The position numbers and the translations under genes are program-made. A stretch of 64,000 nucleotides of DNA from Candidatus Melainabacteria bacterium 17Bon1m (GTDB lineage: Bacteria; Cyanobacteriota; Vampirovibrionia; Obscuribacterales; Obscuribacteraceae), in the NCBI GenBank assembly GCA_032128875.1, contig JAVLKG010000002.1:928001-992000 (forward strand), in the 5' to 3' direction. The notes beneath the pieces are model-generated. The model was not told where the DNA came from. It ran no database searches and was given only the letters and a program-made list of their open reading frames with translations. This document shows, in pieces, positions 33,053 through 52,194 of the stretch; position 1 is the stretch's first letter, and each line of letters starts with the position of its first letter.

Positions 33053-33056
33053 TAAC

Positions 33057-34241: not shown

Positions 34242-34252
34242 GGCTTAAGACT

Positions 34253-34783
34253 CTAATTACTCTTCGGTTGCATTGTTCTATAGATGCGTGAGTACTGGCA
34301 ATAATTCTGCCAGCCACGTTCGATTTGACCGCGATCGTCTTCACTCAACTGACGAACGATTTTTCCTGGCACACCCATTACCAGACTGTAGGGTGGAATT
34401 TCTTTGCCCGGCGAAACCACGGCACCGGCTGCAACAATCGAGCCGCGTCCTATCACAGCATGGTCCAAAACCACCGCGCCCATTGCGATCAAGCAATCAG
34501 CCTCAATTCGGCAACCATGCAAAATCGCTCCGTGACCAACTGTGACTCGTTCCGCCACGTACAATCCATGCCTGCCGGTGACATGCAACATGCACCCGTC
34601 CTGGATATTGGTGTTTTCGCCGATTTCAATTGAATTGATATCGCCACGCAAGACGCTGTTAAACCATACGCTTGCGCCTGCAGCAATCTTCACCCGGCCG
34701 ATTAGAACAACGGTTGGGGCGATATATGCGTCTTCGGCGACTTGAGGTTCGTGTCCTTCGAAAGGAATTAGCATGCCATTCAT
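34253..34783 (-). CDS. Gamma carbonic anhydrase family protein (YrdA-like)
   Basis: Hexapeptide repeats, LRGD, NIQDGCMLH, VGHGAILHGC. Confidence 0.92.
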   Translation of the reverse strand: MNGMLIPFEGHEPQVAEDAYIAPTVVLIGRVKIAAGASVWFNSVLRGDINSIEIGENTNIQDGCMLHVTGRHGLYVAERVTVGHGAILHGCRIEADCLIAMGAVVLDHAVIGRGSIVAAGAVVSPGKEIPPYSLVMGVPGKIVRQLSEDDRGQIERGWQNYCQYSRIYRTMQPKSN

Positions 34784-34949
34784 AAGGAAGAGTCTAGCGA
34801 ATTAAAAGCACGTAAACGGTGACTAACTCAACAAAAGAGGATTATCTGATATTGAATTGTGAACCTAAAACAACTAAAGGTCATGCAATGGCGACTTTCG
34901 GGCTGCCAAGATGTTAAAATTAACAACTGGAGTAAAGGAGACGTCACAC

Positions 34950-35222
34950 ATGCCCGTATACGACCAGCCCATGCGGAAGCTTCTTGGAATCCTCTCGCCT
35001 ACTATTTCCTGGCTTAATGAAAAAGGATCGGTAGACGTGAATTCCGTTCCAGAGAATCATTTGGAAGCTATCAAGCAATTGGAGCGTATCGGCGTTGTAC
35101 ATAAGCGCAACAACCGTTGCTATGAATTGCAAAAGATTCGCTTGAAAAAGCTGATGGGCAATCTTGGCATCGAGCAGCTCGTCAATCCAGAGCCGGCAGC
35201 TGCGCCTGTGGAATTGAACTGA
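34950..35222 (+). CDS. Small hypothetical protein, possible winged helix
   Basis: AAGGAG RBS before ATG 34950; TGnTAAAAT at 34912-20; AIKQLERIGVVHKRNNRCYEL wing-like motif. Confidence 0.6.
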   Translation: MPVYDQPMRKLLGILSPTISWLNEKGSVDVNSVPENHLEAIKQLERIGVVHKRNNRCYELQKIRLKKLMGNLGIEQLVNPEPAAAPVELN

Positions 35223-35236
35223 TCCTGAACTAGACC

Positions 35237-37663
35237 ATTTTTAAAGATATTGAATTACGAGCGCTGCGTTCGCTTGAGTGGGACAAATTATTAGAGTTCC
35301 TCTCGCAAGAAGCTGAAAGCAAACGCGGAAAAGATCTGTGCCGCCAGGTTTTGCCAGGGCGCGAACGTGCGATTGTCAATGTTTTGCTCGCAGAGTCAGA
35401 TGAGGCGTTGGCGCTGATCTCTCAGCGTACAGGCATGTCGTTCGAGCGCTTGCCGGATCTCGACGAAACATTGAACAGGCTTGAATCTCAGGCTGTTCTT
35501 TCTGAGAGTGAATTGCATGCTTGCCGATTAGCGATGTCGTTGTCCAGGCAGGCTAGAAGGTCACTTTCTCTTCTTGACAATGAAGCATTTCCTGCTCTTC
35601 GCGCATATCTTCCTGCTCTTGCCGATTTCGAAAAGTTGCTAAGAGAGCTCAACGAAATGCTCGATGACGGCGGCAGAGTAAAAGACGATGCGACCCCGCA
35701 TTTAAGAGGTTTGAAAAGTGAAGTTAGACGTCTTGATTCAAAAATCAAAGACGAATTGAATAAAGTTATTCATTCTCAGACTCAGTCAAAAGCTCTTCAA
35801 GAGCCAATTTACACACAGAGAAACGGGCGCTATGTTTTGCCGGTAAGTGCTGCGCAACGGCATGTGGTTCCGGGAATCGTGCACGACAGTTCGCAAAGCG
35901 GATTGACCGTATACGTTGAGCCTATGCCGGTTGTGGAACTCGCAAACAAGCTGAGAATAAAGGAAGCGGAAATCGAACACGAGATTGCTCGCATTCTTTC
36001 CGTTTTGTCTCAACAAGTGTATGCGGGTCGTGATGAGCTTTCACAAGCATTCACTTCTCTGGCAGAATTGGATGCGATTTTTGCCAGGGCTCGCTTTGCC
36101 ACTAAATACGATGGCATTAAACCTGAGTTGAATGAAGAAAATCGTTTTGAATTCATCAGTGTACGTCATCCACTTCTCATACTTCAGTCAGCCAAGGAGA
36201 AGGTTGTTCCTAATACCGTAAGTTTAGGCGGTAAAGATAGAACACTTGTAATTACTGGCCCCAATACGGGCGGTAAAACAGTTCTTCTCAAGACTATCGG
36301 ACTTTTGTCTTTGATGGTCCGCGCCGGCTTGCTTATTCCTGCTGCCCGAGGATCGAAAGCAGCTTTGTTTACTCAGATTTTTGCCGATATTGGAGACGAG
36401 CAATCACTGGCTCAGAGCCTTTCCACATTCTCTTCGCACATGAAGACGATTGTGGAGGTGGTGAAAAGTTCAACGGTCGGTACTCTCGCGCTGCTGGATG
36501 AAATCGGTGTCGGAACGGATCCAAGAGAAGGAGCGGCAATTGCGCGCTCAGTACTCGAGCACCTCAACGATTCGGGAGCCGTCACAGTCAGTACGACCCA
36601 CTTCGGGCAGTTGAAGACTCTTGCTTACAACCTGCCCGGTATGGTGAATGGCAGTTTGGAATTTGATGAAACCACGCTGTCTCCTACCTACCGCTTACGT
36701 ACCGGTATTCCTGGAAGCTCGAAAGGCATTACGATTGCCCGCCGTTTGGGCCTGGATGAAAAACTGGTGGATCTGGCAATTTCTTACCTGGATGTGGCAG
36801 ATGCAGTCATTGATGAAACTGTGGCTCGCCTTGAGGAACGCATCAAGGGACTGGAGTCGAAAGAGGCACTGGCTCAGGAAAAGCTCGTTGAAGCCGAGCG
36901 TTTGACTCAAGAATTGCAGCTCGAAATAGATCGCGAAAGAGCGCAGAGCGAGGAAACCAGGCAAAAGCTCGCTAGCGATCTGAAAGAAGAATTCACTGTA
37001 GCCTTTGAATTAATCAAAGAGACGATAAGAAATCTGCAGAAAGAGCCCAGCATTTCCGGCGCTCAGAAGGCGAAAGAAAAAATGGAGCAGCTCAAAAAAG
37101 AGCTTAACTGGCTCGACTCTCCTGCAAAAAAAGGTGAAAAGACTGCGATCAAACTTTCAGTCGGCGATCGAGTTTCGGTCGTGAGTTTGAACCAGAGGGG
37201 CGTCATTGAAGAGCTTCCCGAAGGTGTGGAAAACAACCCTCGCGGAATTGTTGTCGTTAGGGCGGGTGCTGTCAAACTCAAAGTACCTGCAAGTGATATA
37301 AGACGCATATCGGACGGTGGTCAAAAGTCTGAAAAGGGTCGAGGCGGCGGCAATGCCGGCAAAGCTCGGGGACCTGCGCCTGTTCGTATATACCGAAACG
37401 AAACAAATGTATTTGTTCGCACGGAAATAAATACTCTCGACTTGCGAGGCGAAAGAGTCGATGCCGCGCTCATAAAACTCGAGCAATTTCTGGATGCCTG
37501 CCTGCTTTCCTCAATCAGTCCGGTGATGATTATTCATGGACATGGCACTGGCGCGGTCAAAGATGCCGTGCGGACTTTTCTTTCGAATAGTAACTACGTC
37601 TCGAAATTCCGACCTGGCGAGAACTATGAGGGAGCCGACGGTGTAACGGTCGCTGAATTGTAG
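35237..37663 (+). CDS. mutS2: Endonuclease MutS2
   Basis: ITGPNTGGKT, FADIGDEQS, STFSSH, LDEIGVGTDP, C-terminal Smr domain (LDLRG...IIHGHGTG). The conserved N-terminal LRSLEWDKL lies upstream of the ORF-track start, so the start codon is uncertain. Confidence 0.95.
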   Translation: MFKDIELRALRSLEWDKLLEFLSQEAESKRGKDLCRQVLPGRERAIVNVLLAESDEALALISQRTGMSFERLPDLDETLNRLESQAVLSESELHACRLAMSLSRQARRSLSLLDNEAFPALRAYLPALADFEKLLRELNEMLDDGGRVKDDATPHLRGLKSEVRRLDSKIKDELNKVIHSQTQSKALQEPIYTQRNGRYVLPVSAAQRHVVPGIVHDSSQSGLTVYVEPMPVVELANKLRIKEAEIEHEIARILSVLSQQVYAGRDELSQAFTSLAELDAIFARARFATKYDGIKPELNEENRFEFISVRHPLLILQSAKEKVVPNTVSLGGKDRTLVITGPNTGGKTVLLKTIGLLSLMVRAGLLIPAARGSKAALFTQIFADIGDEQSLAQSLSTFSSHMKTIVEVVKSSTVGTLALLDEIGVGTDPREGAAIARSVLEHLNDSGAVTVSTTHFGQLKTLAYNLPGMVNGSLEFDETTLSPTYRLRTGIPGSSKGITIARRLGLDEKLVDLAISYLDVADAVIDETVARLEERIKGLESKEALAQEKLVEAERLTQELQLEIDRERAQSEETRQKLASDLKEEFTVAFELIKETIRNLQKEPSISGAQKAKEKMEQLKKELNWLDSPAKKGEKTAIKLSVGDRVSVVSLNQRGVIEELPEGVENNPRGIVVVRAGAVKLKVPASDIRRISDGGQKSEKGRGGGNAGKARGPAPVRIYRNETNVFVRTEINTLDLRGERVDAALIKLEQFLDACLLSSISPVMIIHGHGTGAVKDAVRTFLSNSNYVSKFRPGENYEGADGVTVAEL

Positions 37664-37916
37664 TCCTGCAACCGCGTATTCCTCCCACCCTGGCGTAAAA
37701 ATTTTTTGTCCAGAACTGCAGTCCACTGTATAGAAGCAAGGACTGTCCTCAGTAGGTCGAGCCGACCTAACCCTTACGGAGCCCGACGAGACTTTCCAGG
37801 TTAATTCTTACGCCAATCGGTCTGGGTCTACGTGGTTTTCCCACATACAAATAAGGGAATGATATTTAAGCTGAGTGCAGCATTGGTGCTCCTTTCAGTC
37901 GCGTGAGGTTGTCAAG

Positions 37917-40900
37917 ATGGTCGAAGGGAATCAAGTTCCCGGCGGGGAAGAGATCGGCACACGGAGAGACGTTGTTGCAGAAAACAATGTCCAACCGGCA
38001 GCCGACAGATGGCAGGAAGACTACCAGCGAACGGTAGGTTTCCAGCCTCAGGATGGAACCAGCGAACGACAACAAGTCGCGGCGGGCTACGACCGCAACT
38101 TGGGTTACGACCGCATTGCCGTCGGCAATACGGCGCTCGGTCAACGCATCGACAACATCACCAATCTCCTGGCGATGGGCGAACGCTCCGCCGGAAATCT
38201 GCAAGACGTCAACCGCTTCTACGGCAGAGCACAGAAAGAAGCAGACGACCTTTTCAGTGTTGCCGCTCAGAACGTAATGAAGGGTCGCGAAGACTATCGC
38301 GCCATCCTTTCAGCAAAGAGCCCGCAAGAAGTATTTCAGGGCGTCGAAGCTTCCATTCAGAAGCAGACCCAAGTATTGCAACAACAACTTCAGCAAGAAA
38401 GAGATCCTGCCAGAGCCAGACGACTCGAGCAGATTCTTGCCATGGAGCAAGAGCGCGCTCAGACTCTCGAGCGCATGAAGCAGACGAATAACCCGCAAGA
38501 ACTGAACCGTCTATTAATGTACGACGCGTTCAGTGCTCAGCGTATAGATCTATCTCAGAAGATGATGAATGAGAGAGATCCCAATCAAGTTAGATTGATG
38601 GCCGAAGCAGAACAGAATCTGCACACGGTACAGCGTGCACCTGGTTTTACGCGCGCCAATTACGGCATGCTCCTGATGCGTATGGGGCAATACGATCCAA
38701 ATAGACCGGACAACGCCGCGTTGCGCGCACTTCAAGATGCCGCGTCAGTTGATCCTGAAATGGTCCCTAATCCTAATAGTGCAGATCCGGCACGCCGCAT
38801 GGGCGATCCTAATTTCATGCGCGTTGCATCTGACATCACTCGCATGAGTCCGGACGATCCGAATTTTGCCCGCGCGATGGCCCCTATCTTTAATAGGGAT
38901 ATCAACCGCTCGCCTTCACCGTTGCAGGCTGCAGAAAATACAAATCCGAATGCACGTTATTCGCAAGTTCAAGAACAGCCCTACCAACCTGCAAGAGATG
39001 GCGGTAATCGCCCGCTCGAGCAACAACGCGTAACTGATCAAACACAAGGAGTTACTCCTCTGGTCAATGGAAAGACTCCTTTCCAGCGCGTACAAGAATT
39101 GGGAAAAGTTGTCGAAGCGCAAGGTTTGACACCTGATGTCCGTCAGGCTTATGTATCAGCGATTCAAGATTCTGATAAAGGGACCTCGCCGCGTGTAGCG
39201 GAGCTGCAAGCCCAGCTGGCTCAGCTCGAGCAAAAACAGCAAGCACTCGCTCAAAAGGTTCAAGAAGTTCAGCAAAGTCCTGAAATTGCACAGCTCGTTC
39301 AGTCCGGTATGGCCAAACTGAAGGCACGTCCTGAAGCTGAGCAGCAGCAATTGAAGGCTTTGACCGAGCAATTGCAGAAAACTCAAGATAAAGCGGAGCG
39401 TGAAAAACTGCTCGGCGATATCAATAAGATCTGTCCGGAATTTGTTCAAGTCACAAAATTGCTCGAACAGAAGCTGAAGCCGTTTACCGACGAGCTTCAA
39501 CAAATTCAGCAACAAGGGGCCGCTCTCACCAATGATCTGATTGGTGAAATGAATCAGTCTTCCGCCACTCGCATGGAATATGCCGAGAAGCTCATGAAGT
39601 CTGACAAGCCGGAAGACAAAGAGGCTGCCAAACAACTCCTTATCGAGTCTGTCGCCAAAGCAAAACCGGAACAGCGTGAAGCCTTCGCACAATACGCTCA
39701 GCAGTTGGGACTGACGAAGCAAGAACTCGAACAGGGTCTTGCAAAGATTCCTCAAGCACAAGTCGAGCGTTCCGCCACTCAGCCGGGAGCACAGCCAGGC
39801 GTAGAAACCGGTGAAAGAACCGGCGCCGGCAAACTAATCGACGAAAACAAAAAAGCTTTTGACGCTGCTCAAGACAAGAAAGCCAAACTGGCTGAAATGC
39901 AGGGTTCGTTCAAGAAAGCGATCACTGACGCCGACAAAGAATTCGCCGACGCAGAGACCAGATATAACGCTCTGGATGCAGCTCACACTAAAGCCGCCAA
40001 TGACATGCCGGCTGAGGACAAAGCTAAGTTCCAGAAGATGTTGACGCAAGGCACTCCGGATGCCGAAAAGCAAGCTCTGCAGCAAGAGCTTTCGACCAAG
40101 TACGCAAATATCGTCCAGATGGAAACAGAAATGAAAGCCATCAAAGACGGTGCCCTCGATCTGGCGCTCAACAAATTCGAAGCTCGCTACGAATTTGCCC
40201 GCGCATCGAATTTGGGCGGCGATGATGCCACTGCTAAAGCAATGATGTCCGAAGGGATCAAGACCCTCACTAAGGATGTAGGCACTGAGCTGACCGCCAA
40301 GGTGATGGAAGATCCAGGCGTTGCAGATGTGGCTAAGAAACTCGGCGTTGATGCGAATGCACTGATGAAAGAGGCAGCCGCCGAAGCTCCAGCTGCACAA
40401 CCGGGCAGTGATACCGCAGGCGCTACCGGTGACTTGCAAGGCACCTTGCGCGTTGCTAATGCTCGCATGCAGAAGGGCGATATTGCCGGCGCCAAGCAAG
40501 CTTACGAATCAGCCATCAAGATGGTTGATGCTTCATTCAATCCTGACGAGAACAACAGGAAGATCAAAGAAGCTCAAGATCTACTCGAAAAAGGCAATCT
40601 CACGATTGAGCAGCGCCTGCAAAAACAACAGGAAATTGCAGGTTATTTCAACCAAGCCTACCAGGCATTCGATATAAGAAGCGGATACGCCAGAATTTTG
40701 GCGCACCCGAACTACAATCAAAACGCCGCCGCTGAAGCAGCATTCAAAGATGCGGTGGCCGCAGCAGACAAAGTACCGGTTCAAGCAATGAAGCGTCAAA
40801 TCGGCTTGCTTGCAAACGATATCGGTACCTTCCAAACTGCATACGAACAAGCGACCGGCGACAGAAAGACTCAAATCGAACAAGCGCAGGCTTTCCTTAG

Positions 40901-43313
40901 CGAATTCTCCAACACCTTGAACGGTCAAACGACCGGTGGCGGACCCGCTGCAGACAAAGCGTGGATGAACACGCAAATCAACGCACGCAAAGACCTGGCT
41001 TCCTTCTATGTTCGACTGGTAACCGACATAGATGAGAAGGGTCAGCCGATCATGAAGTCGGATGGCAAGCCTAGATACGTGCCCGACGCTTCCAAAGTCT
41101 TCAAGCCCGAAGAAGCGATGAAGGCAATAGACGAAGCAAAAGCGAAGTATAAGGAATTGCATGGCACCGATCTGGATAAAGATCCTGCCAAAGATCCGAC
41201 TCTGGCAGAATTGGCTAAAGGTATTTACGACAATAGCCCTGCCGAACTGCAGAAGAAGTACCAGAACGTTTCACGCTACTGGGATGAAGCGAAAGCAAGC
41301 ATTCCAACATTGGTCGCCGGCGTCGGCTCAGCTCTTTTGTTGGCCAAGTTCAAGCCATTGAGACCACTTATTGGCGAAAGTGCAGCCGCAACCTGGGGTA
41401 CCGCACTTGTCGGTGGATCTGGTGTCGCATCAGTGACGCACCACACCATGATGAACAACGTGCTTGGTCGTGAAGACAATACGTGGGGCAGAAGTATTGC
41501 CACCGGTACAGGTCTCACACTCGGCGGCGTCGGACTTATGAAAGTACCGAAGATGCTCTTCCGTAATGCCGATGATGTAGCTATGGCTTCTGTTATCGAA
41601 CGCGGCGGCGCCGGCGGTATGAAGTTCCATCCTGCTGTAGAAGGCGCAGCTCCTAAGCTGATGAACCTTGATGAACTCAAGGCTGCCAAAGACCTTCTCG
41701 GAACGAAGCAGGCAAGTATGACTGCCGAAGCGTTTGCAGCAGAGTCCAAGCAACTTGATTCACTGATAAGAGCCAGCCAAAACCGTGATGCTCTATGGGC
41801 ATTACAGGCAGGCAAGAATGGTGCCAAACTTACAGGCGGCTTTGATGCCGAATTGGCTAGAGCTGCAACTGGCGCAGATAAAGCCGCTTTGGTCGACAGA
41901 CTGGGCGGCGCCGTCAAGAAATTCGCACCGGAATTGAGACTTGCTCAAGAAGCGCCTAAGTACGGCGAAATTCTTGCGCAAAGAGGTGGCATTGTCGTCA
42001 AAGATCAAGCCATCGTTGAAAAACTGATTGCCGCTGATCTGCCGGTCATCAGAACCGCTGCCGGTGAGAACGTCCTGGCGATGAGAACAGCCGGCGAACT
42101 CGAGGCGGCACTCAAAGCAATTCCAAATATCGAGCCCAAACTGCTCGGTGCTAAGAATCTGAAGACTGCAACAGCGCAAGCGACTAAGATGCTTGATGAT
42201 TTGGCTGCCACCGGTCTGAAGGGCGACGACTTGCTCGCTCCAGCTCTGAAAAATGCCACACTGGAAAATCAGGCGCAGCTCAATCTCTTGCGTAATCTGG
42301 TTCCGGAAGCGGCAGCAGAAGCTAAATTGGCAGGACGTTTCGGCGGCGTTGCTCAATTGGAAAGAGAGGGCTTGCTCTCCAAAGGTTACGGATTTGCCAC
42401 CGGTAAGTTTGGAGCTCCTATCATCGGTACGACCGCTGGGTTCGGACACGAACTATACAGTTCGAATGCCGAAAACAGAGACTTCAGCTTCGGCAACGCA
42501 GCAGTCAAATCGGCACTCGTTGCCGGCGGACTCTGGGGAGGCGGCAAAGTCATCGAATATGGACACGGTATCGTTAAGCCGATGGGCGCTAAGACTTTCG
42601 CTGATCTCGGTCACTCGCGCTTCATGGCCGGATCTGCCGGCGGAGCCGCCTTCTACTCGGGTTCCAACTACTTACCTGCATGGCAGCACATGTACGGTGG
42701 AGAAGGTAATCTCGATCCGAAGACAGGTAAGCCTTACGAATTCAACTTCAGCAACGCCATCGTTGCTCCAGCCTGGAAAGACGCCGGAGACAACATCTTC
42801 GTCAGCTCCTTCCTGCTGGGCGGTATGGCTGCCAAACCGGGTCAAGCAATTTTGGCTCAAGCTCCTTGGGCTAATTCGAGAATGCTCTGGAAGCCTTTCT
42901 CTGCAGCCGGCGGCGTATTCACCGGTTCTACCTGGAACTACCTGGGCGCTCGCTCCATGCCTGTTCTAGGAGAAATCGGACCAGCGCTGAGCACCAACAT
43001 GGCAATGGGCCAGTTCGAGTTGCTCAACAATCTCTCCAACAGAGACGCTGGTCGCCAATACACCGATGCCTTGAAGATGAAGGACCAGCAGATCACCGAC
43101 GAGTCGCCTGAAGCGATTCAGAAACGTCTGGCTGACTTGAAAGCGCAGCAAGAAAAACAGCAGCAACAGCAGCAACAACAACAGCAAGAACAGCAAAAGC
43201 AACAACAACAGAAGAAGCCAGATGCCCAACCAGGTACCCAGCAAGGGACTGAGCAAGGCAATGGAAATCAGCCTCGTCCGGAAAATCCGGACTTGACCGG
43301 CGGCGTTCAATAA
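37917..43313 (+). CDS. Giant (~1798 aa) helical-repeat protein with Gly/Ala-rich hydrophobic C-terminal region
   Basis: Long uninterrupted ORF; GAGG RBS before ATG 37917 (MVEGNQ); no Sec signal; poly-Q tail. Confidence 0.85.
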   Translation: MVEGNQVPGGEEIGTRRDVVAENNVQPAADRWQEDYQRTVGFQPQDGTSERQQVAAGYDRNLGYDRIAVGNTALGQRIDNITNLLAMGERSAGNLQDVNRFYGRAQKEADDLFSVAAQNVMKGREDYRAILSAKSPQEVFQGVEASIQKQTQVLQQQLQQERDPARARRLEQILAMEQERAQTLERMKQTNNPQELNRLLMYDAFSAQRIDLSQKMMNERDPNQVRLMAEAEQNLHTVQRAPGFTRANYGMLLMRMGQYDPNRPDNAALRALQDAASVDPEMVPNPNSADPARRMGDPNFMRVASDITRMSPDDPNFARAMAPIFNRDINRSPSPLQAAENTNPNARYSQVQEQPYQPARDGGNRPLEQQRVTDQTQGVTPLVNGKTPFQRVQELGKVVEAQGLTPDVRQAYVSAIQDSDKGTSPRVAELQAQLAQLEQKQQALAQKVQEVQQSPEIAQLVQSGMAKLKARPEAEQQQLKALTEQLQKTQDKAEREKLLGDINKICPEFVQVTKLLEQKLKPFTDELQQIQQQGAALTNDLIGEMNQSSATRMEYAEKLMKSDKPEDKEAAKQLLIESVAKAKPEQREAFAQYAQQLGLTKQELEQGLAKIPQAQVERSATQPGAQPGVETGERTGAGKLIDENKKAFDAAQDKKAKLAEMQGSFKKAITDADKEFADAETRYNALDAAHTKAANDMPAEDKAKFQKMLTQGTPDAEKQALQQELSTKYANIVQMETEMKAIKDGALDLALNKFEARYEFARASNLGGDDATAKAMMSEGIKTLTKDVGTELTAKVMEDPGVADVAKKLGVDANALMKEAAAEAPAAQPGSDTAGATGDLQGTLRVANARMQKGDIAGAKQAYESAIKMVDASFNPDENNRKIKEAQDLLEKGNLTIEQRLQKQQEIAGYFNQAYQAFDIRSGYARILAHPNYNQNAAAEAAFKDAVAAADKVPVQAMKRQIGLLANDIGTFQTAYEQATGDRKTQIEQAQAFLSEFSNTLNGQTTGGGPAADKAWMNTQINARKDLASFYVRLVTDIDEKGQPIMKSDGKPRYVPDASKVFKPEEAMKAIDEAKAKYKELHGTDLDKDPAKDPTLAELAKGIYDNSPAELQKKYQNVSRYWDEAKASIPTLVAGVGSALLLAKFKPLRPLIGESAAATWGTALVGGSGVASVTHHTMMNNVLGREDNTWGRSIATGTGLTLGGVGLMKVPKMLFRNADDVAMASVIERGGAGGMKFHPAVEGAAPKLMNLDELKAAKDLLGTKQASMTAEAFAAESKQLDSLIRASQNRDALWALQAGKNGAKLTGGFDAELARAATGADKAALVDRLGGAVKKFAPELRLAQEAPKYGEILAQRGGIVVKDQAIVEKLIAADLPVIRTAAGENVLAMRTAGELEAALKAIPNIEPKLLGAKNLKTATAQATKMLDDLAATGLKGDDLLAPALKNATLENQAQLNLLRNLVPEAAAEAKLAGRFGGVAQLEREGLLSKGYGFATGKFGAPIIGTTAGFGHELYSSNAENRDFSFGNAAVKSALVAGGLWGGGKVIEYGHGIVKPMGAKTFADLGHSRFMAGSAGGAAFYSGSNYLPAWQHMYGGEGNLDPKTGKPYEFNFSNAIVAPAWKDAGDNIFVSSFLLGGMAAKPGQAILAQAPWANSRMLWKPFSAAGGVFTGSTWNYLGARSMPVLGEIGPALSTNMAMGQFELLNNLSNRDAGRQYTDALKMKDQQITDESPEAIQKRLADLKAQQEKQQQQQQQQQQEQQKQQQQKKPDAQPGTQQGTEQGNGNQPRPENPDLTGGVQ
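43146..43211 (+). repeat. CAG/CAA-rich poly-glutamine coding tract
   Basis: Encodes QQEKQQQQQQQQQQEQQKQQQQ. Confidence 0.9.
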
Positions 43314-43317
43314 AATC

Positions 43318-43343
43318 GTGGCTTCTGCTTGCGTAGAAGCCAC
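43318..43343 (+). terminator. Hairpin after the first giant gene
   Basis: GTGGCTTCT-N8-AGAAGCCAC, 4 nt after the stop; weak U-tract. Confidence 0.55.
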
Positions 43344-43592
43344 ACTGATTCCTGAAATTCGTGGAGGCGAATTATCAAAACGGGGTTATATTATAGATAA
43401 GATTTTTTATCTGGAGATTCCTGACTAAGGAACCTCCGGATAGCTACTTAAGGGACCCAGGAAAGCAAATTGAGCAGCGGAGATTTAGCCCAAAACAGCC
43501 AGAGAGTGTCCAGAAAGTTTGTATCCCGTATACATGCAGACAAGCACCTTTGCGCTACCAAATTTGCTCTCCGAAAAGAGGTTACTACCTAA

Positions 43593-46500
43593 ATGGTTGA
43601 ACGAAATCAGTACGAGCCAAGTCTGAAGCCCATCAATCAGGGCGACGTCCAAGGTGAAGGTGAAAACCAGAACACCGAAAACGCCCAATTGACGTATTCA
43701 GATGTTATGCGTGCCAAATACGAAGCACCGCAACGCGCCGAGACTCAACAAGTTTCCGATCGTACTAATGTTTCCGACGTCAAAGATCCGGACATCATCA
43801 AAGCTTTCACTCTGGTAGACAATGCCAAAGAAGCATCGATGCTTCTCAATATTCAAGAAAGCAAACAGCCCGACAACACAAAAGTTGAGATGGCTGATGC
43901 TAATGGTCGTCCATTTACTATTACTCTTGGCGAACTCAAGCAAAAGCTCATTGAAGATTTGACAAAGAATTCTGATTTTAAAGGATTCAACGATGCTGGT
44001 CAGCTGAGAGAATTCATCAGCAAGTCTACAGACGCCGCGCTTACTCTCAGCACACAAACCAGAGAGAAGTACGAGGCAAAATCAAGAGAGAGCGATACCA
44101 ACGTCAATGCTCGCAACGAGTTGGCTAAGCAACTTGGTTTTCAACCAACCACCCGTGAAATTCCGGACGGCAATGGCGGCAAGAAGTCCGTAACCTCTTA
44201 CGATATTACTCAAAAGGATATCGATGCCCGTTTGGCTACAACCACAGATGCTGGTCAGAAAGCCAACCTCGAAAAGCTCAAAGGTCTTTTGACCAATTAC
44301 GACAGTATTCAAAAAGAACGCAACGCACTTTCGGCCGTTGACGTTACCGCTGCTCAGTTGATGATGGGCGGTTTCACTCACAAGGCCGGTGAGCAAACTC
44401 TCGAAGGGTTGCCTGCAACCAGAAGCGAAGTTATGCGCTCTTACGAGATCATGAACAAGGCCGGTCGCGGCAACGCTCAACTCGAGCAGACTCCTCAGTT
44501 CCAAATGGTGAAGGAGCAATCCAGCGCCATGTACGCCGACATCCAACTGCAACGCAGCAAAGATGCCGTCAATGCGCTGCAGGAAGCAGACAAATTGAGA
44601 GTCGCCGGCAAGCCCACCGAAGCTCAAGCAAAGTACGAAGAAGCCCTTCAGAAAGTGAAAGGCGTCGACATGGCAACGATTACCACTCAGTGGCAATCGC
44701 AAATGAGAGAGTTCAATACTGTTCAAGAGAAATTGACCGCGCTCGGCAATCCTCCTTCCAATCCGCAAGAAGCGCAGCGTCTTGCTACCGAACTTCAACA
44801 GCGCCAACAAATCGGTTTGCAACTCGAGCAAATCATTCAAGTCGGCAAAGAAGTAAAAACCGAATACGCACGTTTTCTCAATGAGCAAGGCAAGCCTGGC
44901 GAAGCGCTTCCGCTCTTGACCAGCGTCGCTTCCGGAACTCCTCAAGAATTGCTCGCCGGTGATACTACTTTCACCGAGCAGTTGGAAAAAGCTCAAAGCC
45001 TCGGCTCGATCACCAGCGGTGATGCCGAAAAGCACCGCGTCCTTTATGAACAAGCGATGGCTTCCAAAGATTGGACGACTGCCGAGCGCGAAATGGCTGC
45101 TCTCAAAGCTGCTTCAACCAAAGCATCTGAAGCCACCATCCAAGGTGCCAAAGATCGCGTCGCCGTAATGGACAAGAGACAAGCAGAGCTCAAGGCCGAA
45201 GCGGAAGACTTGAAAAAGAACACCACTATGGATGCTGATGCAAAAGCTCTTCGTCAACAACAAATTGATGCAGAGTTGAAAGGCTACGATGTTCTGCGCA
45301 AAGGGTTGTCCGATGGAATTCCGGCTGCCGAGAAAGCTGCTAAAGAGCATGCTAATCAGCTTCGCTACATGGAAGGCATCATTGCTTATTCCAAAGAAGA
45401 CAAAGAAACAGCACACAAAATCTTCAAAGAACTGGAAGCAGAAGCGCCAGAAATCGCCAGCAACAAAGACTACCAATTGGATGCTTTGCTCGAAGACACT
45501 CGCAAGAAAGGCTGGCTCGAGCGTCACTGGGATACGATTGTGAGCGTAGGCAAGATTGTTGCCGTAGTTGGTGCAATCGCTGTTGCCGGTGCAGTCACCG
45601 GTGGTGTCGGAGCAGTCGCACTCGCTGGTGCACTCGGCGCCGCTGGCGTATTCACTGTCGGCGCTGTCGGACACGGTGTTGCCAAAGCCAACGACTGGAA
45701 GTCCACAGACAACTATCACAACTGGAGACCAGGACAAGATTTGCTTATGGGTGCAGCCGGCGGCGCCGGCGGTGCTGCATTGCAAGGACTGTTCGCTGCC
45801 GGCGGAACCGCTGGTTTGGGCGGCAGAATGGTGGCAGCCGGCGGCAGAATTGCTGCAGCAGAAGGCGGCGCAACATTCGGCTCGACAGCTCTCAATGTAG
45901 GCGGCAACGCTCTCATCAGAGGCACTCAACTGGCATCACAAGCCACCACCTTCAAGGGTGCTCTCACCGTGGGTGCTACCTACGGATATGGCGGCGAAGC
46001 AGTAAACTCGTTGACTACCGGAAAACAATTCAGCTTTGGCGATGCCACCAGCAAGACTGCTGGCATGAGCACAGCCCTCTTCTTAGCCGGCAGGACTGGT
46101 GGACTTGGTTCATTCAAGGGCTCGATGGTATACGGCGGCGTCCGAACCGTAGAAGAGCAAGGCAGAGATGTTGTACACGGCAAAGACATCAGTCAAGCGG
46201 CTATGGACAGTCTTGGCAGCTTCGGAAAACACAGCTTCGACGCATTTGCAGTCGGCACCATCGCCAATATGAACGCCGCAGCGCAAGCCGGCAGATTCCA
46301 ATTGGCAAGAGCATTGCCCGAAGGTCAAGCGCTCAACTGGAATTCTGCTCGTCAGTTTGCGGTCAACCTGCCAGGTGCAACCGGCAGCAACCTCCTGTCG
46401 CAAGGCAGATTGGTGTTCAAAGAAGGCATGACCATGACCGGCAAGCAAGGCGCCGTTGTGGGCGCGCTCGGTACCGGACTTGTAGGCTGGCAAGTGCACC

Positions 46501-46643
46501 AAGGTGATGTTGCTTACGATGAAAGCCGCACTGCCAAGACCTGGGATACTCAGGATAATATGACCCGCATGAGAATGAACCAAACAATGGAAGCACTCTC
46601 AAAACCAGTGCCAAAACCGGTCATCAGACGTCCGCAACCGTAA
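43593..46643 (+). CDS. Large (1016 aa) helical protein with Gly/Ala-rich multi-hydrophobic C-terminal region
   Basis: GAGG RBS; MVERNQ start; coiled coils; long hydrophobic stretch IVSVGKIVAVVGAIAVAGAVTGGVGAVALAGALGAAGVFTVGAVG. Confidence 0.85.
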   Translation: MVERNQYEPSLKPINQGDVQGEGENQNTENAQLTYSDVMRAKYEAPQRAETQQVSDRTNVSDVKDPDIIKAFTLVDNAKEASMLLNIQESKQPDNTKVEMADANGRPFTITLGELKQKLIEDLTKNSDFKGFNDAGQLREFISKSTDAALTLSTQTREKYEAKSRESDTNVNARNELAKQLGFQPTTREIPDGNGGKKSVTSYDITQKDIDARLATTTDAGQKANLEKLKGLLTNYDSIQKERNALSAVDVTAAQLMMGGFTHKAGEQTLEGLPATRSEVMRSYEIMNKAGRGNAQLEQTPQFQMVKEQSSAMYADIQLQRSKDAVNALQEADKLRVAGKPTEAQAKYEEALQKVKGVDMATITTQWQSQMREFNTVQEKLTALGNPPSNPQEAQRLATELQQRQQIGLQLEQIIQVGKEVKTEYARFLNEQGKPGEALPLLTSVASGTPQELLAGDTTFTEQLEKAQSLGSITSGDAEKHRVLYEQAMASKDWTTAEREMAALKAASTKASEATIQGAKDRVAVMDKRQAELKAEAEDLKKNTTMDADAKALRQQQIDAELKGYDVLRKGLSDGIPAAEKAAKEHANQLRYMEGIIAYSKEDKETAHKIFKELEAEAPEIASNKDYQLDALLEDTRKKGWLERHWDTIVSVGKIVAVVGAIAVAGAVTGGVGAVALAGALGAAGVFTVGAVGHGVAKANDWKSTDNYHNWRPGQDLLMGAAGGAGGAALQGLFAAGGTAGLGGRMVAAGGRIAAAEGGATFGSTALNVGGNALIRGTQLASQATTFKGALTVGATYGYGGEAVNSLTTGKQFSFGDATSKTAGMSTALFLAGRTGGLGSFKGSMVYGGVRTVEEQGRDVVHGKDISQAAMDSLGSFGKHSFDAFAVGTIANMNAAAQAGRFQLARALPEGQALNWNSARQFAVNLPGATGSNLLSQGRLVFKEGMTMTGKQGAVVGALGTGLVGWQVHQGDVAYDESRTAKTWDTQDNMTRMRMNQTMEALSKPVPKPVIRRPQP

Positions 46644-46707
46644 CTTCATTTATATCTGAGTCCGAGTCGGACAATCTTGTATAAGCGCATGACTTATACT
46701 GGAGGAC

Positions 46708-47466
46708 ATGCCGCATCTTTCGGTAATCATTCCGGCTTACAACGAAGAAAAGAGGTTGCCGACTACGCTCGAGTCGGTGCATGCTTTCTTGTCTGAAACC
46801 GGTCAAGACTTTGAAATAATCGTTGTTGACGACGGCAGCAGCGATAATACAAAGGCGGTTGTCAACGACTTTGCGGGTACGCACTGCAGCGTCAGGTTGA
46901 TTGCGCATACACCGAATATGGGCAAAGGATATTCAGTGCGTGAGGGTATGCTCAAAGCGCAGGGAGAATATCTCCTGCTTGATGATGCTGACGGTGCTTC
47001 GCCGATTGCTGAAGTCGTGCGACTGCTGAGCGCAATTGAAGCTGGGGCCGATGTGGCGATTGGCTCACGTGCTAAGCCAGGCGACGAAACTGTTGTGAAG
47101 GCTCTCTCTCACCGCAAACATATCGGCAATACATTCAATTTGATTGTTCAATCGTCATTGCTGCCGGGGATACAAGACACGCAATGCGGTTTCAAACTTT
47201 TTAAGCGAGATGTTGCCATGGATTTGTTCTCGATTGCGAGATTGAACCGCTACGCTTTCGATGTGGAAATACTCTATCTGGCAAGAATGAAAGGCTATGA
47301 GATTGCTGAAGTGCCAATCAATTGGACCAATGTCGAAGGCTCCAAAATAAATCTCGTGACTGATCCTATGAGTATGCTTTTTGAAATCGGCAAAGTAATT
47401 CTTGGGCGTATGCTTGGAAGTTATGGCAAATTGTCGAAGTCCAAGCAACGGCCGTCCGACGGCTAA
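46708..47466 (+). CDS. GT2 polyprenyl/dolichyl-phosphate glycosyltransferase (ALG5/DPM-like)
   Basis: SVIIPAYNEE, VVDDGSSD, NMGKG, DADG, DTQCGFKLF, FDVEIL. GGAGG RBS. Confidence 0.9.
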   Translation: MPHLSVIIPAYNEEKRLPTTLESVHAFLSETGQDFEIIVVDDGSSDNTKAVVNDFAGTHCSVRLIAHTPNMGKGYSVREGMLKAQGEYLLLDDADGASPIAEVVRLLSAIEAGADVAIGSRAKPGDETVVKALSHRKHIGNTFNLIVQSSLLPGIQDTQCGFKLFKRDVAMDLFSIARLNRYAFDVEILYLARMKGYEIAEVPINWTNVEGSKINLVTDPMSMLFEIGKVILGRMLGSYGKLSKSKQRPSDG

Positions 47467-47497
47467 AACGCAGGTTCTTGCCAATCAGGCAGCAGTA

Positions 47498-50305
47498 ATG
47501 GAAAACGCAAGCAAAGAACGAATAAAGATCGCCGGCACTTATAAAAACGATCTTTTCTGTCTCCTTTGCCTGACAGTTTTTGTAATTGCTATTTTCTCCA
47601 GCACAATTTTTTCCGGCAAGGATATTTCTCGAATTGGCACTGTTGCACATCGAGACACGCTCTTTGGGCGCCTGGCGAAAGGCACTCCCGATCCGATGGA
47701 TACTTGCACGTATCAAGAACATGCGCCGAATTATCTGCTGACTGAAAGGATAATTGCCGGTGGTGATTTGCCGCTTTGGAATCCATATTTGGGCTTTGGC
47801 TGTCCGCTCTGGGCAGACTCTCAAGTTCTCGCATTCTCTCCGATAACCTGGCTGCAAGCGCCTTTTGCGTCGATGCGATTGTATAACTTGCTGATGGTTG
47901 TTCATATTTGGCTGGGTTGCCTATTTGCATATTCGTTTGCGCGCTTATTAAAACTTTCCCCACCAGCTTCTTTGCTCGCATCCATGTCTTATGGCTTGTG
48001 TCCAAACCTGCTCTACATGTTCGAGTGGAATCGCTGTCAGAGTGCCTTCTTTCCACTCCCCTTTTTTGGATTTGCCTTGTTATGGCGATACTCAACTTCT
48101 CTTTCGATTGTTGTCTGTGCCCTTTCATGCACTGCAATGGTGGTGTCTGGTCATGCGGTGCCAAGTTTCTTTGCAATTTTTCTGGCCTCCGTTATGTACT
48201 TTTCGCTATCTCTTGGGGAGCCTCAAACCCAGGCTGGGTCAGGCTTTGTGAGGCTGCCGCGAATTGCCTGTAATTTTATTTCGGTAGGCATAATTACCCT
48301 TCTTCTTTCGGCTCCATTTGTAGTACCGTTTTTGGAAGGTGTGCGTGCATCCGATACATTCAAAGCAACGCAGGGTTATGTTCGATACATTGTGCGAGCT
48401 TCGGCGCTGTTACCTTCGCTTTTTTATCCTTTCCATGGGGCTGGAAGTGTCTATGCCGGTGCGATTTCGATAATTCTTGCTGTGAGCGCCCCGTTTGTTT
48501 CCCGCCGCAATCGAAGGCTCGTCCTCCTTCTTTCAGGGGTGGCTCTTTTTATAATTTGTATTTTGACTAGACCGGGTCCGTTCGACATAGTGTTCCAATT
48601 GCCATACTTGAACTGGTTCATGGTTTTGTATGCTTTGCCTGCGCTGCTGCTATTCATCGCTGTATTAGCAGGTGCAGGCTTTGATGCACTGCTAGAAGAA
48701 GACTCTCGCTTACGCTCTGCAGCAATAATTTTTGCAGTTGCTCTACTTGCCATTGCTATGCCAACTATTTTTCAAAATATGCATTTAACTGCCAAATTTA
48801 CTCTATTGAATGATTGGGTTAAAACAATGGAAGTGAGCTCGGCTGTTCGCATTCGCGAGCTTATTATCATTGTAATTTTCTTGTCAGTTGTTTTTTCGCT
48901 ATCTAAATGTCCTGCAAATTTGAGAAGCAAACTGATACTTTGCCTGATTGTTTTGAACGCTGTAAGTTTGTCGTTTACCATTCGCAAGTCACTGCCGGCT
49001 CGCCCTGCATTCGCTTACGAGGCAGTGGAACCGCTCGGCTTTCTCCGGTCGCAAGGACGGCGCGTGATCAGTATGGGCAGACATGTGCTCGTGCCGAATA
49101 CGAGTCAGATTTTTTCCGTCTCTAATGTTCTTTCGTTTATGCCGACGCACCCGAAGGGTGTTCCGTCATTTTTAGAAGCGATGGGAATCACTCTTGAGGG
49201 TGTGAGCCAGTTTGCTGAAAAGCCGCTGACCAGGCTTGTTGATATCGGTGCTGTCAAGTATGCAGTAGCCAGTGAGCCGGTTCTCTCTGCAGAGGATAAA
49301 TTGCCTGAGGCAGTCGGTGTGTCTGTGAATGGTGGCATCAGTTTCAGTTCGCATGTAAATCTTGTCGGCTACGGACTACAACTGGACGCAAGCAATCAGG
49401 ATATTGTCGGCAGGTTGAAGTGGAAACTATCGAGCGTCCGCGAAAAGTCGTCCGCCGTATTTATGGTTATGTTGCTAAAACCTGATGGTTCCGTTCTTTG
49501 GATTGGCGACCGCCATTCGATTGATGAAGCTAAAGAATCATATGTCACAGCATCTATACCAAAATCGGTGAAACCTGGCGATGAAGTTTGCTTGATTATG
49601 CAGGTGCTCGATTTATCTAGTATGAAGCTTCTATCGGCTTCAAATGCGCCAGCAAGCATGCAGTTCTTGCCCAGTCCAAATTCTCTTTTGCTGGGACGAT
49701 TTAAAGTGCCGGAGAAAGCCCCATCTACCAATCGGCAATTTCGGCTTGTCCATGAGACGGCACCAGAGATGGTGCGCGTGTACGAGAATAAATCTTGTTT
49801 GCCTGAAGCTTACATGGTCACCGCGACACATACGGTGGGCTCGATTGAAGAAGCTTTGTCGCAGATGTTGAAGCCCGGGTTTGATCCAAAGACTGTCGCT
49901 GTAGTTGAGGGATCAGATATTCGGTCATCAGGTCTGAAACCTGGTGAAGCGAATACATCCGGTGCAACCCTTATCGAAGCGAAAGTGAGTCGCTCAGGAG
50001 TCAACGAGGTACTCGTCGAAGCAGAGCCAAAACAGCCATCGTTGCTTGTTCTTACTGATGTCTGCTTTCCTGGCTGGCGGGTAACTATTGACGGGAGGGA
50101 TGCTCCAATCATTCGTGCTAACGGAGTGTTTCGGGGCGTTTTTCTTGAGGCTGGCCATCATAAACTGCGATTTTTCTTTGACCCAATCAGCGTCAAGATC
50201 GGTTTTGCAATGTTTTTCCTAGGGCTTATATTTGTTCTTTTTCTTTTGCGTCCATTGCGAAGTTTCACAAAAAAGCCCTTGGACAGTGGGCCTGAGCCTT
50301 CCTGA
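47498..50305 (+). CDS. YfhO-like GT-C integral membrane glycosyltransferase
   Basis: PLWNPYLGFGCPLWAD motif, multiple TMs, C-terminal PGWRVTIDG...RANGVFRGVFLEAGHH signature. Confidence 0.8.
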   Translation: MENASKERIKIAGTYKNDLFCLLCLTVFVIAIFSSTIFSGKDISRIGTVAHRDTLFGRLAKGTPDPMDTCTYQEHAPNYLLTERIIAGGDLPLWNPYLGFGCPLWADSQVLAFSPITWLQAPFASMRLYNLLMVVHIWLGCLFAYSFARLLKLSPPASLLASMSYGLCPNLLYMFEWNRCQSAFFPLPFFGFALLWRYSTSLSIVVCALSCTAMVVSGHAVPSFFAIFLASVMYFSLSLGEPQTQAGSGFVRLPRIACNFISVGIITLLLSAPFVVPFLEGVRASDTFKATQGYVRYIVRASALLPSLFYPFHGAGSVYAGAISIILAVSAPFVSRRNRRLVLLLSGVALFIICILTRPGPFDIVFQLPYLNWFMVLYALPALLLFIAVLAGAGFDALLEEDSRLRSAAIIFAVALLAIAMPTIFQNMHLTAKFTLLNDWVKTMEVSSAVRIRELIIIVIFLSVVFSLSKCPANLRSKLILCLIVLNAVSLSFTIRKSLPARPAFAYEAVEPLGFLRSQGRRVISMGRHVLVPNTSQIFSVSNVLSFMPTHPKGVPSFLEAMGITLEGVSQFAEKPLTRLVDIGAVKYAVASEPVLSAEDKLPEAVGVSVNGGISFSSHVNLVGYGLQLDASNQDIVGRLKWKLSSVREKSSAVFMVMLLKPDGSVLWIGDRHSIDEAKESYVTASIPKSVKPGDEVCLIMQVLDLSSMKLLSASNAPASMQFLPSPNSLLLGRFKVPEKAPSTNRQFRLVHETAPEMVRVYENKSCLPEAYMVTATHTVGSIEEALSQMLKPGFDPKTVAVVEGSDIRSSGLKPGEANTSGATLIEAKVSRSGVNEVLVEAEPKQPSLLVLTDVCFPGWRVTIDGRDAPIIRANGVFRGVFLEAGHHKLRFFFDPISVKIGFAMFFLGLIFVLFLLRPLRSFTKKPLDSGPEPS

Positions 50306-50474
50306 ATCGCTCGAGCGAGTGTCGAATAATTTCTTGCTGTGGTGCCGGCCTCCCTCGATAGCTGGTTCCCCTCTTGCGACTAAGCCGCTAGAATAAAGAT
50401 AGGTAGTAAAGGCATCCGGTTTCCTGTTTTTATTTTTGAATTGGGCTCTGCTCCGAGCGAGTGAACCTTTTAGT

Positions 50475-50948
50475 ATGACCGGCTCCGATAACCACACACC
50501 AGAAGAAAGGCTGCAAAGAGCCTTGTCCACGCTTGAAGAGATGGTCGGCGAAGACCATCCACATACGGTTTTAGCCCGAATGCGCCTGGGTGATTACTAT
50601 TACGAGAATGCTCAGTACACCCGATGTAAACCGTTTTACACGACCGTTTTAGAAAAATACAGCCAAATTTACGGTCCAGACACTATCGAGACCGCCATGG
50701 CTACTCATAAGTTGGCTTTGCTCTATCATGCTTTGGAGCAATATGACAAAGCTGAGCCCCTATACAATGAGGCTCTTCGCGTTCTTAGAATCGAGCGAGG
50801 CGACTATCACCAAGATGTGCTCGGTGTTTTGAAAGATCTGGCTACGATGCTCCAGATGATGAACCGCGATGAAGAGGCTCAAGAGCTCCTGAATTTTGCG
50901 CAGGACCATTTGTCTGGTCGCTGGAAAACCATTCCCTACGAGGCTTAG
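50475..50948 (+). CDS. Small TPR protein (kinesin-light-chain-type repeats)
   Basis: GEDHPHT, LALLYHALEQYDKAEPLYNEAL, GDYHQDV. Confidence 0.85.
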   Translation: MTGSDNHTPEERLQRALSTLEEMVGEDHPHTVLARMRLGDYYYENAQYTRCKPFYTTVLEKYSQIYGPDTIETAMATHKLALLYHALEQYDKAEPLYNEALRVLRIERGDYHQDVLGVLKDLATMLQMMNRDEEAQELLNFAQDHLSGRWKTIPYEA

Positions 50949-51019
50949 CGGGTTTTTGCCCGTATTTGGACCCTAATAGCACTTCTAGAAGTTAAACGGA
51001 TAACGATTAAACTTCTAGG

Positions 51020-51826: not shown

Positions 51827-51923
51827 AATTTGAGATTCTCTTTTGATGTAATGGGGTGCCGAAAAGCCTCTAAATTCGCTTGTAGTTTACTCGACGGCCG
51901 GACAAGTCGATATAAGAAACATT

Positions 51924-52092
51924 AACCGGCATGCCTAGCCGCTTGACGATTATCCGGCCAGCTAATTATGCTGGTGAATCTCGCTGCAATTGATGCGGCG
52001 ACCGTTCGCTTGTCAGTATGAGTTTTGCGCAAATGTTCACCCAGCAGGCAATTTCGGCGATTATTATCCTTGATTGAGGCTGGCTGCAGGTT
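51924..52092 (+). ncRNA. Candidate 6S RNA (ssrS-like) or structured ileS leader
   Basis: Long rod: AACC/GGTT, CTAGCC/GGCTGG, ~10-12-nt central bubble, TGCTGG-TGAA/TTCA-CCAGCA, branched apex with TCGCTGCA/TGCGGCGA. TATAAG just upstream and an intrinsic terminator downstream. Confidence 0.55.
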
Positions 52093-52104
52093 CAAAGATT
52101 GACT

Positions 52105-52141: not shown

Positions 52142-52194
52142 GACCCAGCGCAAACCAAGTAGCAACTAGTCACAGAGACTCCGGAGCACAAACC

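Follow-up and report, generated by a model that had tools for sequence, protein, structure and literature searches.

What might a bacterium do with two adjacent, very large genes that begin with nearly the same peptide and encode proteins without an export signal? The two genes, here called A and B, lie in a window of 64,000 nucleotides (the whole stretch that was analysed, to whose positions all coordinates refer) of contig JAVLKG010000002.1 from Candidatus Melainabacteria bacterium 17Bon1m, a metagenome-assembled genome (MAG) of the order Obscuribacterales that measures 7.55 Mb and is 93% complete. A first-pass annotation had taken them for an exported pore-former or translocator, a reading that turns out to be poorly supported. 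The interpretation that we prefer, with slightly better than even confidence, is that A and B form an ancient tandem pair, specific to this order, of resident, membrane-anchored scaffold proteins built around tetratricopeptide repeat (TPR) domains, a function that we infer from their architecture and evolution. The elements of the pair are as follows.

37905 to 37910, plus strand: ribosome-binding site GAGGTT of gene A, 6 nt before the ATG (read from the sequence)
37917 to 43313, plus strand: gene A, the longer paralogue, an open frame of 1798 aa that starts MVEGNQ
43317 to 43344, no strand assigned: hairpin with a perfect 10-bp stem, 4 nt past the A stop (terminator-like scan)
43578 to 43583, plus strand: ribosome-binding site GAGGTT of gene B, 9 nt before the ATG (read from the sequence)
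43593 to 46643, plus strand: gene B, the shorter paralogue and a swappable cassette, an open frame of 1016 aa that starts MVERNQ

The basic description given at first, that of two co-oriented open reading frames (ORFs) of these lengths and starts, each behind a GAGGTT, is borne out by the sequence, as is the claim that neither protein has a Sec signal, both N-termini being polar and charged and devoid of any hydrophobic stretch. The T-run of the hairpin between the genes is on the minus-strand side only, so this element may be an attenuator or an RNA-stability element rather than a full terminator.

Paralogy, pairing and distribution

A and B are evidently distant paralogues. The sole stretch that aligns at BLASTP significance is 52 aa long (37% identity, E 5e-5), and it holds the motif, RDFSFGNAA in A and KQFSFGDAT in B, that had already been singled out as common to the two. 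Profile alignment with hhalign matches two regions, A 1490-1548 with B 780-838 (probability 97%, E 4e-11) and A 491-866 with B 170-504 (probability 96.8%, E 3e-10, 281 columns). A genome-wide search for further proteins with the shared start found the MVExNQ codon pattern in three ORFs: A, B and one frame of 24 aa. With so few in a 7.55-Mb genome, the common start of A and B is not due to chance. It is limited to the genus of 17Bon1m and its near relatives, and the orthologous pairs of more distant genera start otherwise. MVExNQ is therefore a poor candidate for an export signal, and we have rejected it in that role.

A word-indexed search gave 10 other homologues of A (34-88% identity) and 19 of B (49-90% identity, about 1000-1094 aa). 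Synteny in related MAGs agrees with the earlier suggestion that the two proteins belong together: A lies immediately upstream of B in 10 of 11 loci, the eleventh contig beginning 953 bp before B. The pair also recurs in distant genera, where A and B show about 22-26% identity, as against 44-51% for mutS2 and 68-70% for ileS. In two of these genera (L049, L050) the order mutS2-A-B-GT2-IMPase-ileS is kept (GT2 being a glycosyltransferase and IMPase inositol monophosphatase), and in a third (L047) the A-B block is inverted, still between mutS2 and GT2. Elsewhere the locus reads A, B, B, GT2 (L046), or has two B-like genes, of 871 and 872 aa, with GT2 and then an ORF of 604 aa between them, behind an A-like gene of 1775 aa (L045; G329:C53). 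The presence of several B-family genes per locus in some genomes of the order indicates that the family has expanded by tandem duplication more than once. In yet another locus (L043) the place of A and B is taken by a single ORF of 3183 aa, in which the B-family profile recognises residues 2304-3024 (E 3.4e-43) and whose N-terminal part is weakly A-like (BLASTP E 2.6e-5). Open frames of similar length (3147-3196 aa) are present in 5 genomes of the same genus. Finally, a second family of the order (f40, L048) has a solitary B-like gene, surrounded by unrelated genes. Both genes are chromosomal, and they have been inherited vertically between housekeeping genes.

The B-family profile matches 82 of the 101 genomes of the Obscuribacterales (that of 17Bon1m included), corresponding to 32 of the 39 high-quality genomes and 27 of the 35 genera, and none of 300 other genomes sampled across the phylum; these counts are samples, and the absence outside the order applies to the genomes searched. 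Searched exhaustively with the profile, 1.84 billion cluster representatives yielded only 40 proteins at E <= 1e-3. The distant members among them are 800-1030 aa long and match B columns of about 400-820, and those with names are all "hypothetical". The named homologues of A and B come from Candidatus Obscuribacterales or Melainabacteria MAGs, and in a full-text literature search no paper on these proteins was evident from the titles and abstract openings returned.

No established family claims either protein. With hmmscan against Pfam-A at E <= 1, A has no match and B only TPR_16 (E 0.28), and among 11 A-family members the recurring rows are APP_E2 (2/11) and weak TPR only. NCBIfam has no family for A or B, and a full-length match to an S-layer, SMC-like or other known non-toxic family is found neither there nor in Pfam. 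PADLOC defence models at E <= 0.1 give 0 families for both proteins, and the only PHROGs row is "head protein" (E 0.011), with no tape-measure row. The absence of any match in Pfam, NCBIfam, PHROGs or PADLOC leaves no translocator or colicin family to which the pair could be assigned. Sequence searches of the PDB gave low-complexity or chance rows only, and neither A nor B had a tblastn match in 50,697 phage records or in 72,556 plasmid records.

Predicted fold and membrane anchor

Both proteins appear to share a four-part build: a cytoplasmic alpha-solenoid ending in a TPR domain; a basic and aromatic junction (RYWDEAK in A, WLERHWD in B); a glycine-zipper anchor, clear in B and weak in A; and a fast-evolving Gly/Ala-rich C-domain. 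The parts of A are listed first, followed by those of B, each with its basis.

38028 to 38906, plus strand: A 38-330, the most conserved helical N-domain (mean pairwise identity 81%; AlphaFold2, predicted local distance difference test (pLDDT) about 70-92)
39387 to 40514, plus strand: A 491-866, a helical region homologous to B 170-504 (hhalign)
40419 to 41261, plus strand: A 835-1115, predicted TPR domain right before the membrane region (structural alignment with VIA-align; pLDDT mostly 80-93)
41274 to 41561, plus strand: A 1120-1215, the RYWDEAK junction and three weakly hydrophobic Gly-rich segments (Kyte-Doolittle)
41562 to 42383, plus strand: A 1216-1489, hypervariable (mean pairwise identity 35% vs 64-81% before the membrane region)
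42384 to 42560, plus strand: A 1490-1548, the module common to B, with RDFSFGNAA (hhalign, BLASTP)
43017 to 43313, plus strand: A 1701-1798, a Gln-rich linker (29% Gln) and the near-invariant C-terminal ENxDLTGG tail

44538 to 45005, plus strand: B 316-471, TPR-like three-repeat module (structural alignment with VIA-align)
45513 to 45680, plus strand: B 641-696, the basic and aromatic junction WLERHWD and a 48-residue Gly-zipper hairpin (Kyte-Doolittle)
45681 to 45827, plus strand: B 697-745, the conserved loop KSTDNYxNW and a third and weaker hydrophobic segment rich in Gly (Kyte-Doolittle 1.2-1.3)
45828 to 46640, plus strand: B 746-1016, variable Gly/Ala-rich C-domain (mean pairwise identity 39-46%)
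45930 to 46106, plus strand: B 780-838, the module common to A, with KQFSFGDAT (BLASTP, hhalign)

AlphaFold2 models built with family alignments predict that A 73-1115 is all-helical (pLDDT 70-93), with disordered linkers at 337-378, 612-633 and 824-838, and that B 55-620 is helical with two small hairpins (pLDDT mostly 70-90). The long N-terminal parts had been described as helical or coiled-coil; the helices stand, whereas in place of coiled coils the models predict alpha-solenoid and TPR modules. The modelled A 835-1115 would qualify as a TPR domain, since its stacked helix-turn-helix repeats superpose on solved TPR domains. The best superpositions (Z 13-15.1, root-mean-square deviation (rmsd) 2.3-3.0 A) cover three-TPR domains in full, and they include Pins (4a1s_A; Z 15.1, rmsd 2.9 A over 141 aa), Sti1 TPR2B (3upv_A; Z 14.9, 125/125 residues) and HOP TPR1 (1elw_B; Z 13.9, 115/115 residues); the noise mark of VIA-align for helical models is at about Z 13. 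In the B family, Pfam TPR rows occur in up to 6 of 18 members, all of them sub-threshold. Foldseek against the PDB found 0 matches for B at E <= 1e-3 and, for A 1-1150, 3 matches, all TPR or solenoid chains with TM-scores < 0.1. Type III secretion system (T3SS) chaperones and an IpaB fragment also figure in the fold lists, but only as further examples of these common folds. In the ESM Atlas the best scores, 0.80 for B and 0.87 for A 1120-1720, belong to unnamed clusters and are leads only. A search for the A N-domain (30-340) in shorter proteins found just 3 fragments of the same family.

The junction of the first-pass annotation is present in both proteins, RYWDEAK as A residues 1120-1126 (from nt 41274) and RHWDTIV as B residues 644-650 (from nt 45522). 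Beyond it, B 649-667 reaches a Kyte-Doolittle value of 2.2 (family mean 2.11) and is the sole strongly hydrophobic segment of the pair. K654 is the only charged residue in the 48 of B 649-696, and 5 K/R stand among the preceding 24. Nothing is better preserved in B homologues of 17-26% identity than the W-x-E-R-N/H-W motif and the hairpin, and B very probably sits in the membrane. By the positive-inside rule, under which a K/R-rich flank stays on the cytoplasmic side, the 5 K/R before the B hairpin suggest that its N-domain is cytoplasmic. In the loop that follows, K703, S704, T705, Y708, N710 and W711 are invariant. The corresponding segments of A have Kyte-Doolittle peaks of 1.55, 1.01 and about 1.0 (family average 1.43). 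Thus the original picture of Gly/Ala-rich C-terminal parts with multiple hydrophobic segments applies as regards composition (24-44 Gly plus Ala per 100 residues in the two C-parts; 15% Gly and 14% Ala in B 746-1016) and the strong hairpin of B, and needs qualifying for A, whose segments are only weak.

A ends in a near-invariant peptide, ENxDLTGG(V/AP)Q (43287-43310 region), in which E1789, N1790, D1792, L1793, G1795 and G1796 are invariant across 11 sequences; an A-like protein of 26% identity ends ENPPSGGAPE. This C-terminal peptide looks like a short linear motif for a partner protein. A complex prediction of B 55-640 with the A tail (1735-1798) scored 0.00, in a run made without controls, and argues neither way.

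Taken together, this architecture suggests how a pair of scaffolds could work. The hairpin would tether the conserved TPR platforms on the cytoplasmic side of the membrane, where they would recruit partner proteins, and the variable C-domains of A and B would associate with each other, in or beyond the membrane, through the module that they share. A purely cytoplasmic arrangement is distinctly unlikely in our judgement. Here A and B would be cytoskeleton-like proteins or polarity or division landmarks, with a re-entrant hairpin, both ends inside and no functional tie to the neighbouring glycosyltransferase, by analogy with the membrane-tethered coiled-coil landmarks of other bacteria. Giant helical proteins with disordered linkers would suit such a role, the 48-residue bilobed hairpin fits an in-in topology, rows for EzrA appear in 2 of 18 family members and the B-like gene of family f40 does without its usual neighbours. 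However, the EzrA rows are far under the cut-off (16.9 vs 39.6 bits), and neither the fast evolution of the post-hairpin domains, the fastest-evolving parts of both proteins, nor the cassette exchange of B described below would be explained.

Replacement of B and the neighbouring genes

The membrane region divides both proteins into a well-conserved and a variable part: in A, mean pairwise identity falls from 64-81% before it to 35-57% after it, and in B from 67-77% to 39-46%. A further pattern emerges from comparison with a near-identical genome (L005), to which the flanking proteins are 97-99% identical and the YfhO-like protein downstream 88%. Against this genome A has a synonymous divergence (dS) of 0.33 and a ratio of nonsynonymous to synonymous divergence (dN/dS) of 0.024, and it is as conserved as its housekeeping neighbours. 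In B, dS rises to 1.79, compared with 0.15-0.53 in the neighbouring genes, with dN 0.22 and dN/dS 0.12 (range 0.12-0.15); dN is 0.43 for the variable C-domain (746-1016) vs 0.13 for residues 1-640. At the nucleotide level the two genomes are 91-97% identical up to 43648 and 95-99% identical from 46767 onwards, with 47-84% in the stretch between (43649 to 46766). These break points bracket B almost exactly and mark a whole-gene allele replacement under continued purifying selection; B alone has evidently been replaced by recombination between near-identical genomes. When genomes of the genus are compared with the window, the identity values for the C-terminal end of A, for B and for GT2 change independently of one another.

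Upstream of A lie the housekeeping genes carB, a hydrolase, a protease, phosphoketolase, acetate kinase and mutS2; downstream of B come GT2, the YfhO-like membrane protein, a small TPR protein, inositol monophosphatase and ileS. The neighbourhood contains no phage, plasmid or secretion genes and no tRNA, and an Rfam scan of the whole window gave 0 matches. The two genes next to B are the following.

46708 to 47466, plus strand: GT2 glycosyltransferase of the polyprenyl-phosphate sugar synthase class, neighbour of B (Pfam Glycos_transf_2, E 1e-34)
47498 to 50305, plus strand: YfhO-like large membrane protein (Pfam YfhO, E 1.3e-6, just under the cut-off)

GT2 directly adjoins B in 10 of the 11 related loci (the eleventh contig stops inside B) and a B-family gene in 19 of 29 further loci, for which only 1.5-kb flanks were considered. 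Its best NCBIfam rows, PgfS, dolichyl-P hexose transferase and ArnC, are all below cut-off (74.7 vs 500 bits for PgfS). The YfhO match is confined to 60 C-terminal residues, and this gene is a neighbour in the closer genera only, being missing at the locus in L043, L044, L046, L049 and L050. Its nucleotide identity to L005 drops to 79-85% past 47966 (gene part 47966-50305), and its protein is 88% identical, compared with 97-99% for GT2, mutS2 and ileS, so that a second variable gene adjoins the B cassette. In their order, GT2 followed in closer genera by YfhO-like, these neighbours (not A and B themselves) resemble the extracytoplasmic glycosylation modules of the GtrB/CsbB-YfhO or PgfS type; they differ in that the NCBIfam rows of GT2 are far below cut-off and the YfhO match is so short. 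Any action of these glycosylation genes on A or B is our conjecture from their position.

If the C-domains were outside the cell membrane, then the cassette swap, the variability and the adjacent GT2 of the polyprenyl-phosphate sugar class would point to an exposed, diversifying envelope structure. In that case A and B would have their N-termini in and C-termini out, with variable C-domains that face the periplasm or the surface and act in recognition or adhesion or in the manner of receptors. GT2 and the YfhO-like protein might glycosylate them, and pressure from phages or competitors would keep them diverse. The precise replacement of B between near-identical genomes, with its high dS (1.79 vs 0.15-0.53), is what such a structure would lead one to expect, as is the concentration of variability in the post-membrane parts. 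The third hydrophobic segment of B (717-745) would place its C-domain outside; GT2 adjoins in 10/11 and 19/29 loci, and still does so after inversion or fusion, and the divergence of the YfhO-like gene (88% aa vs 97-99% in the flanks) points the same way. Yet the third segment is marginally hydrophobic (1.2-1.3), the C-domains are not especially rich in Ser/Thr (8-15% in both proteins), the swap took the whole of B with its conserved cytoplasmic part, dN/dS is well under 1 and the link to glycosylation consists of gene order alone. On balance we think exposure unlikely.

The small TPR gene beyond the YfhO-like gene (50436-50948; 170 aa, TPR_12 type) is syntenic in related loci at 83-97% identity, more conserved than A or B, and its NCBIfam rows (TPR_12/FxSxx_TPR type) include no T3SS chaperone family. 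Further upstream, at 17806-22473, are two neighbouring genes for Ser/Thr protein kinases of about 750 aa, the second of which has C-terminal TPR_12 repeats. In the phosphoketolase and acetate kinase pair (30611-34241), the acetate kinase ORF as listed has its start, a TTG, within the phosphoketolase gene; its Pfam match begins at residue 66, and the true start is therefore probably downstream of the overlap. Promoter-like sites are at chance level in the promoter and terminator scan (8 found vs 8.9 expected). Four runs recorded as transcriptomic RNA-Seq (X1-X4) cover 34000-53900 as 26-54 kb contigs with even depth over genes and spacers; they behave like genomic DNA, say nothing on transcription and may stem from the source sample of the assembly.

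Export systems, scaffolds and the role of the pair

The proposal with which the locus was first annotated was that of an effector or translocon of two components, exported independently of Sec, that would insert into the membrane of a target at interbacterial or predatory contact. It is not without some appeal, there being no signal peptide, a hydrophobic glycine-zipper hairpin behind a long helical part, a conserved pairing and a B that varies by allele swapping. A search of the genome for export genes went against it: FHIPEP (PF00771) has 0 matches, in a search whose control was positive in 4 of 14 reference genomes, and neither VirB4 nor TssC, of the T6SS (type VI secretion system) sheath, has any, in a genome that is 93% complete. 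ATPases of the type II secretion system or type IV pilus (T2SS/T4P) class (6 places) and secretins (3 places) are present elsewhere, but such systems take substrates exported by Sec or Tat. Neither Pfam nor NCBIfam nor PADLOC assigns the proteins to a family of translocators, colicins or toxins, and the DNA between and behind the two genes contains no small ORF that resembles an immunity gene. The conservation of A is that of a housekeeping gene, inheritance of the genes is vertical, predicted TPR domains adjoin the membrane region and distant orthologues lack the MVExNQ start. The remaining leads, both weak and within noise, are a superposition of the B model on the IpaB coiled coil and a PT-TG cluster at rank 27 (score 0.82) in a language-model search. 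We consider the effector very improbable.

T3SS translocators (IpaB/SipB/YopB) likewise have a helical N-terminal part, then a hydrophobic hairpin, and no Sec signal, and the IpaB coiled coil 5wkq_B superposes on the B model at Z 9.1 (rmsd 4.2 A over 114 aa), which is within noise for helical models. These translocators are usually about 600 aa long; A and B are two to three times longer, contain predicted TPR domains, are core syntenic genes without a family match and reside in a genome without the T3SS export gate. Chlamydial Inc proteins, the T3SS substrates of an intracellular pathogen, carry near the N-terminus a hairpin with a bilobed hydrophobic stretch of about 40-60 residues. The likeness is that of a bilobed, largely uncharged hairpin joined to long helical domains; here, by contrast, the genome has no T3SS, 640-1120 residues precede the hairpin and the sequences are not similar. 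For the colicin pore domain there is no Pfam row at E <= 1 and no PDB sequence match beyond low-complexity rows, a comparison confined to sequence, the modelled C-domains having pLDDT < 50.

Other identities were also tried and rejected. Phage tape-measure proteins are very long and helical and may carry Gly-rich hydrophobic segments, but A and B have no PHROGs row of that kind, no phage tblastn match, no phage genes nearby and a fixed chromosomal position across the order. A polymorphic toxin (e.g. PT-TG) was set aside in the absence of a Pfam row for A or B and of any called ORF of at least 80 aa between B and GT2. Exporters such as PelB/BcsC combine TPR with a porin; a beta-barrel of this kind was dismissed on the lack of a signal peptide and of a C-terminal aromatic residue, and on C-domains that are predicted, with low confidence, to be helical.

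The closest general likeness is with membrane-anchored TPR scaffolds and adaptors, which similarly place a TPR module beside a membrane anchor in a protein that is very large and in part disordered. Among the structures that superpose are the TPR domains of Pins/LGN, HOP/Sti1 and Sgt2 and the transmembrane anti-sigma factor DdvA (8rot_B), on whose TPR part B 316-471 superposes at Z 10.7, under the noise mark. Landmark proteins of the FimV/HubP type may be a further likeness. A and B differ from these scaffolds in having no sequence family match above cut-off, in an anchor that is a glycine-zipper hairpin followed by a Gly/Ala-rich domain of 270-580 aa of no known family, and in being a paralogous pair confined to one order.

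Several points weigh against our preferred interpretation of A and B as resident scaffolds. The most serious is that the C-domains may lie on either side of the membrane. Membrane insertion is itself predicted from hydropathy alone, the segments of A are weak (Kyte-Doolittle maximum 1.55) and the AlphaFold2 pLDDT is < 50 over B 623-782. The TPR superpositions of B 316-471 (Z 10.0-10.7, rmsd 1.7-2.3 A, 86-98 aa) fall under the noise mark. The replacement of B as a whole gene and the variable C-domains are typical, too, of proteins that are exposed or antagonistic. Synteny extends over the entire neighbourhood, and the adjacency of GT2 may accordingly reflect inheritance rather than function; indeed GT2 does not adjoin the B-family gene in 10 of 29 loci, nor in family f40. 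Finally, "scaffold" is the name of a class and not of a process, and the partner is putative.

There is also a bolder scheme, which we rate as quite improbable, in which A and B are parts of an envelope apparatus specific to the Obscuribacterales. Its TPR platforms would operate interchangeable outer domains (the B cassette and the A C-domain), maybe modified with sugars by GT2 and the YfhO-like protein, for cell-cell recognition or for contact-dependent attack by membrane insertion without any of the known injection systems.

The Obscuribacterales are uncultured, non-photosynthetic relatives of the cyanobacteria, and their cell biology is essentially unknown. A and B are among the largest genes of this genome and are present in most of the searched genomes of the order, without an annotated family. 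A tempting mis-annotation of the pair as a translocator or pore-forming toxin has now been removed, and their defined architecture, lasting pairing and the clean swap of B make them a tractable lead into an order-specific organisation of the envelope or membrane.

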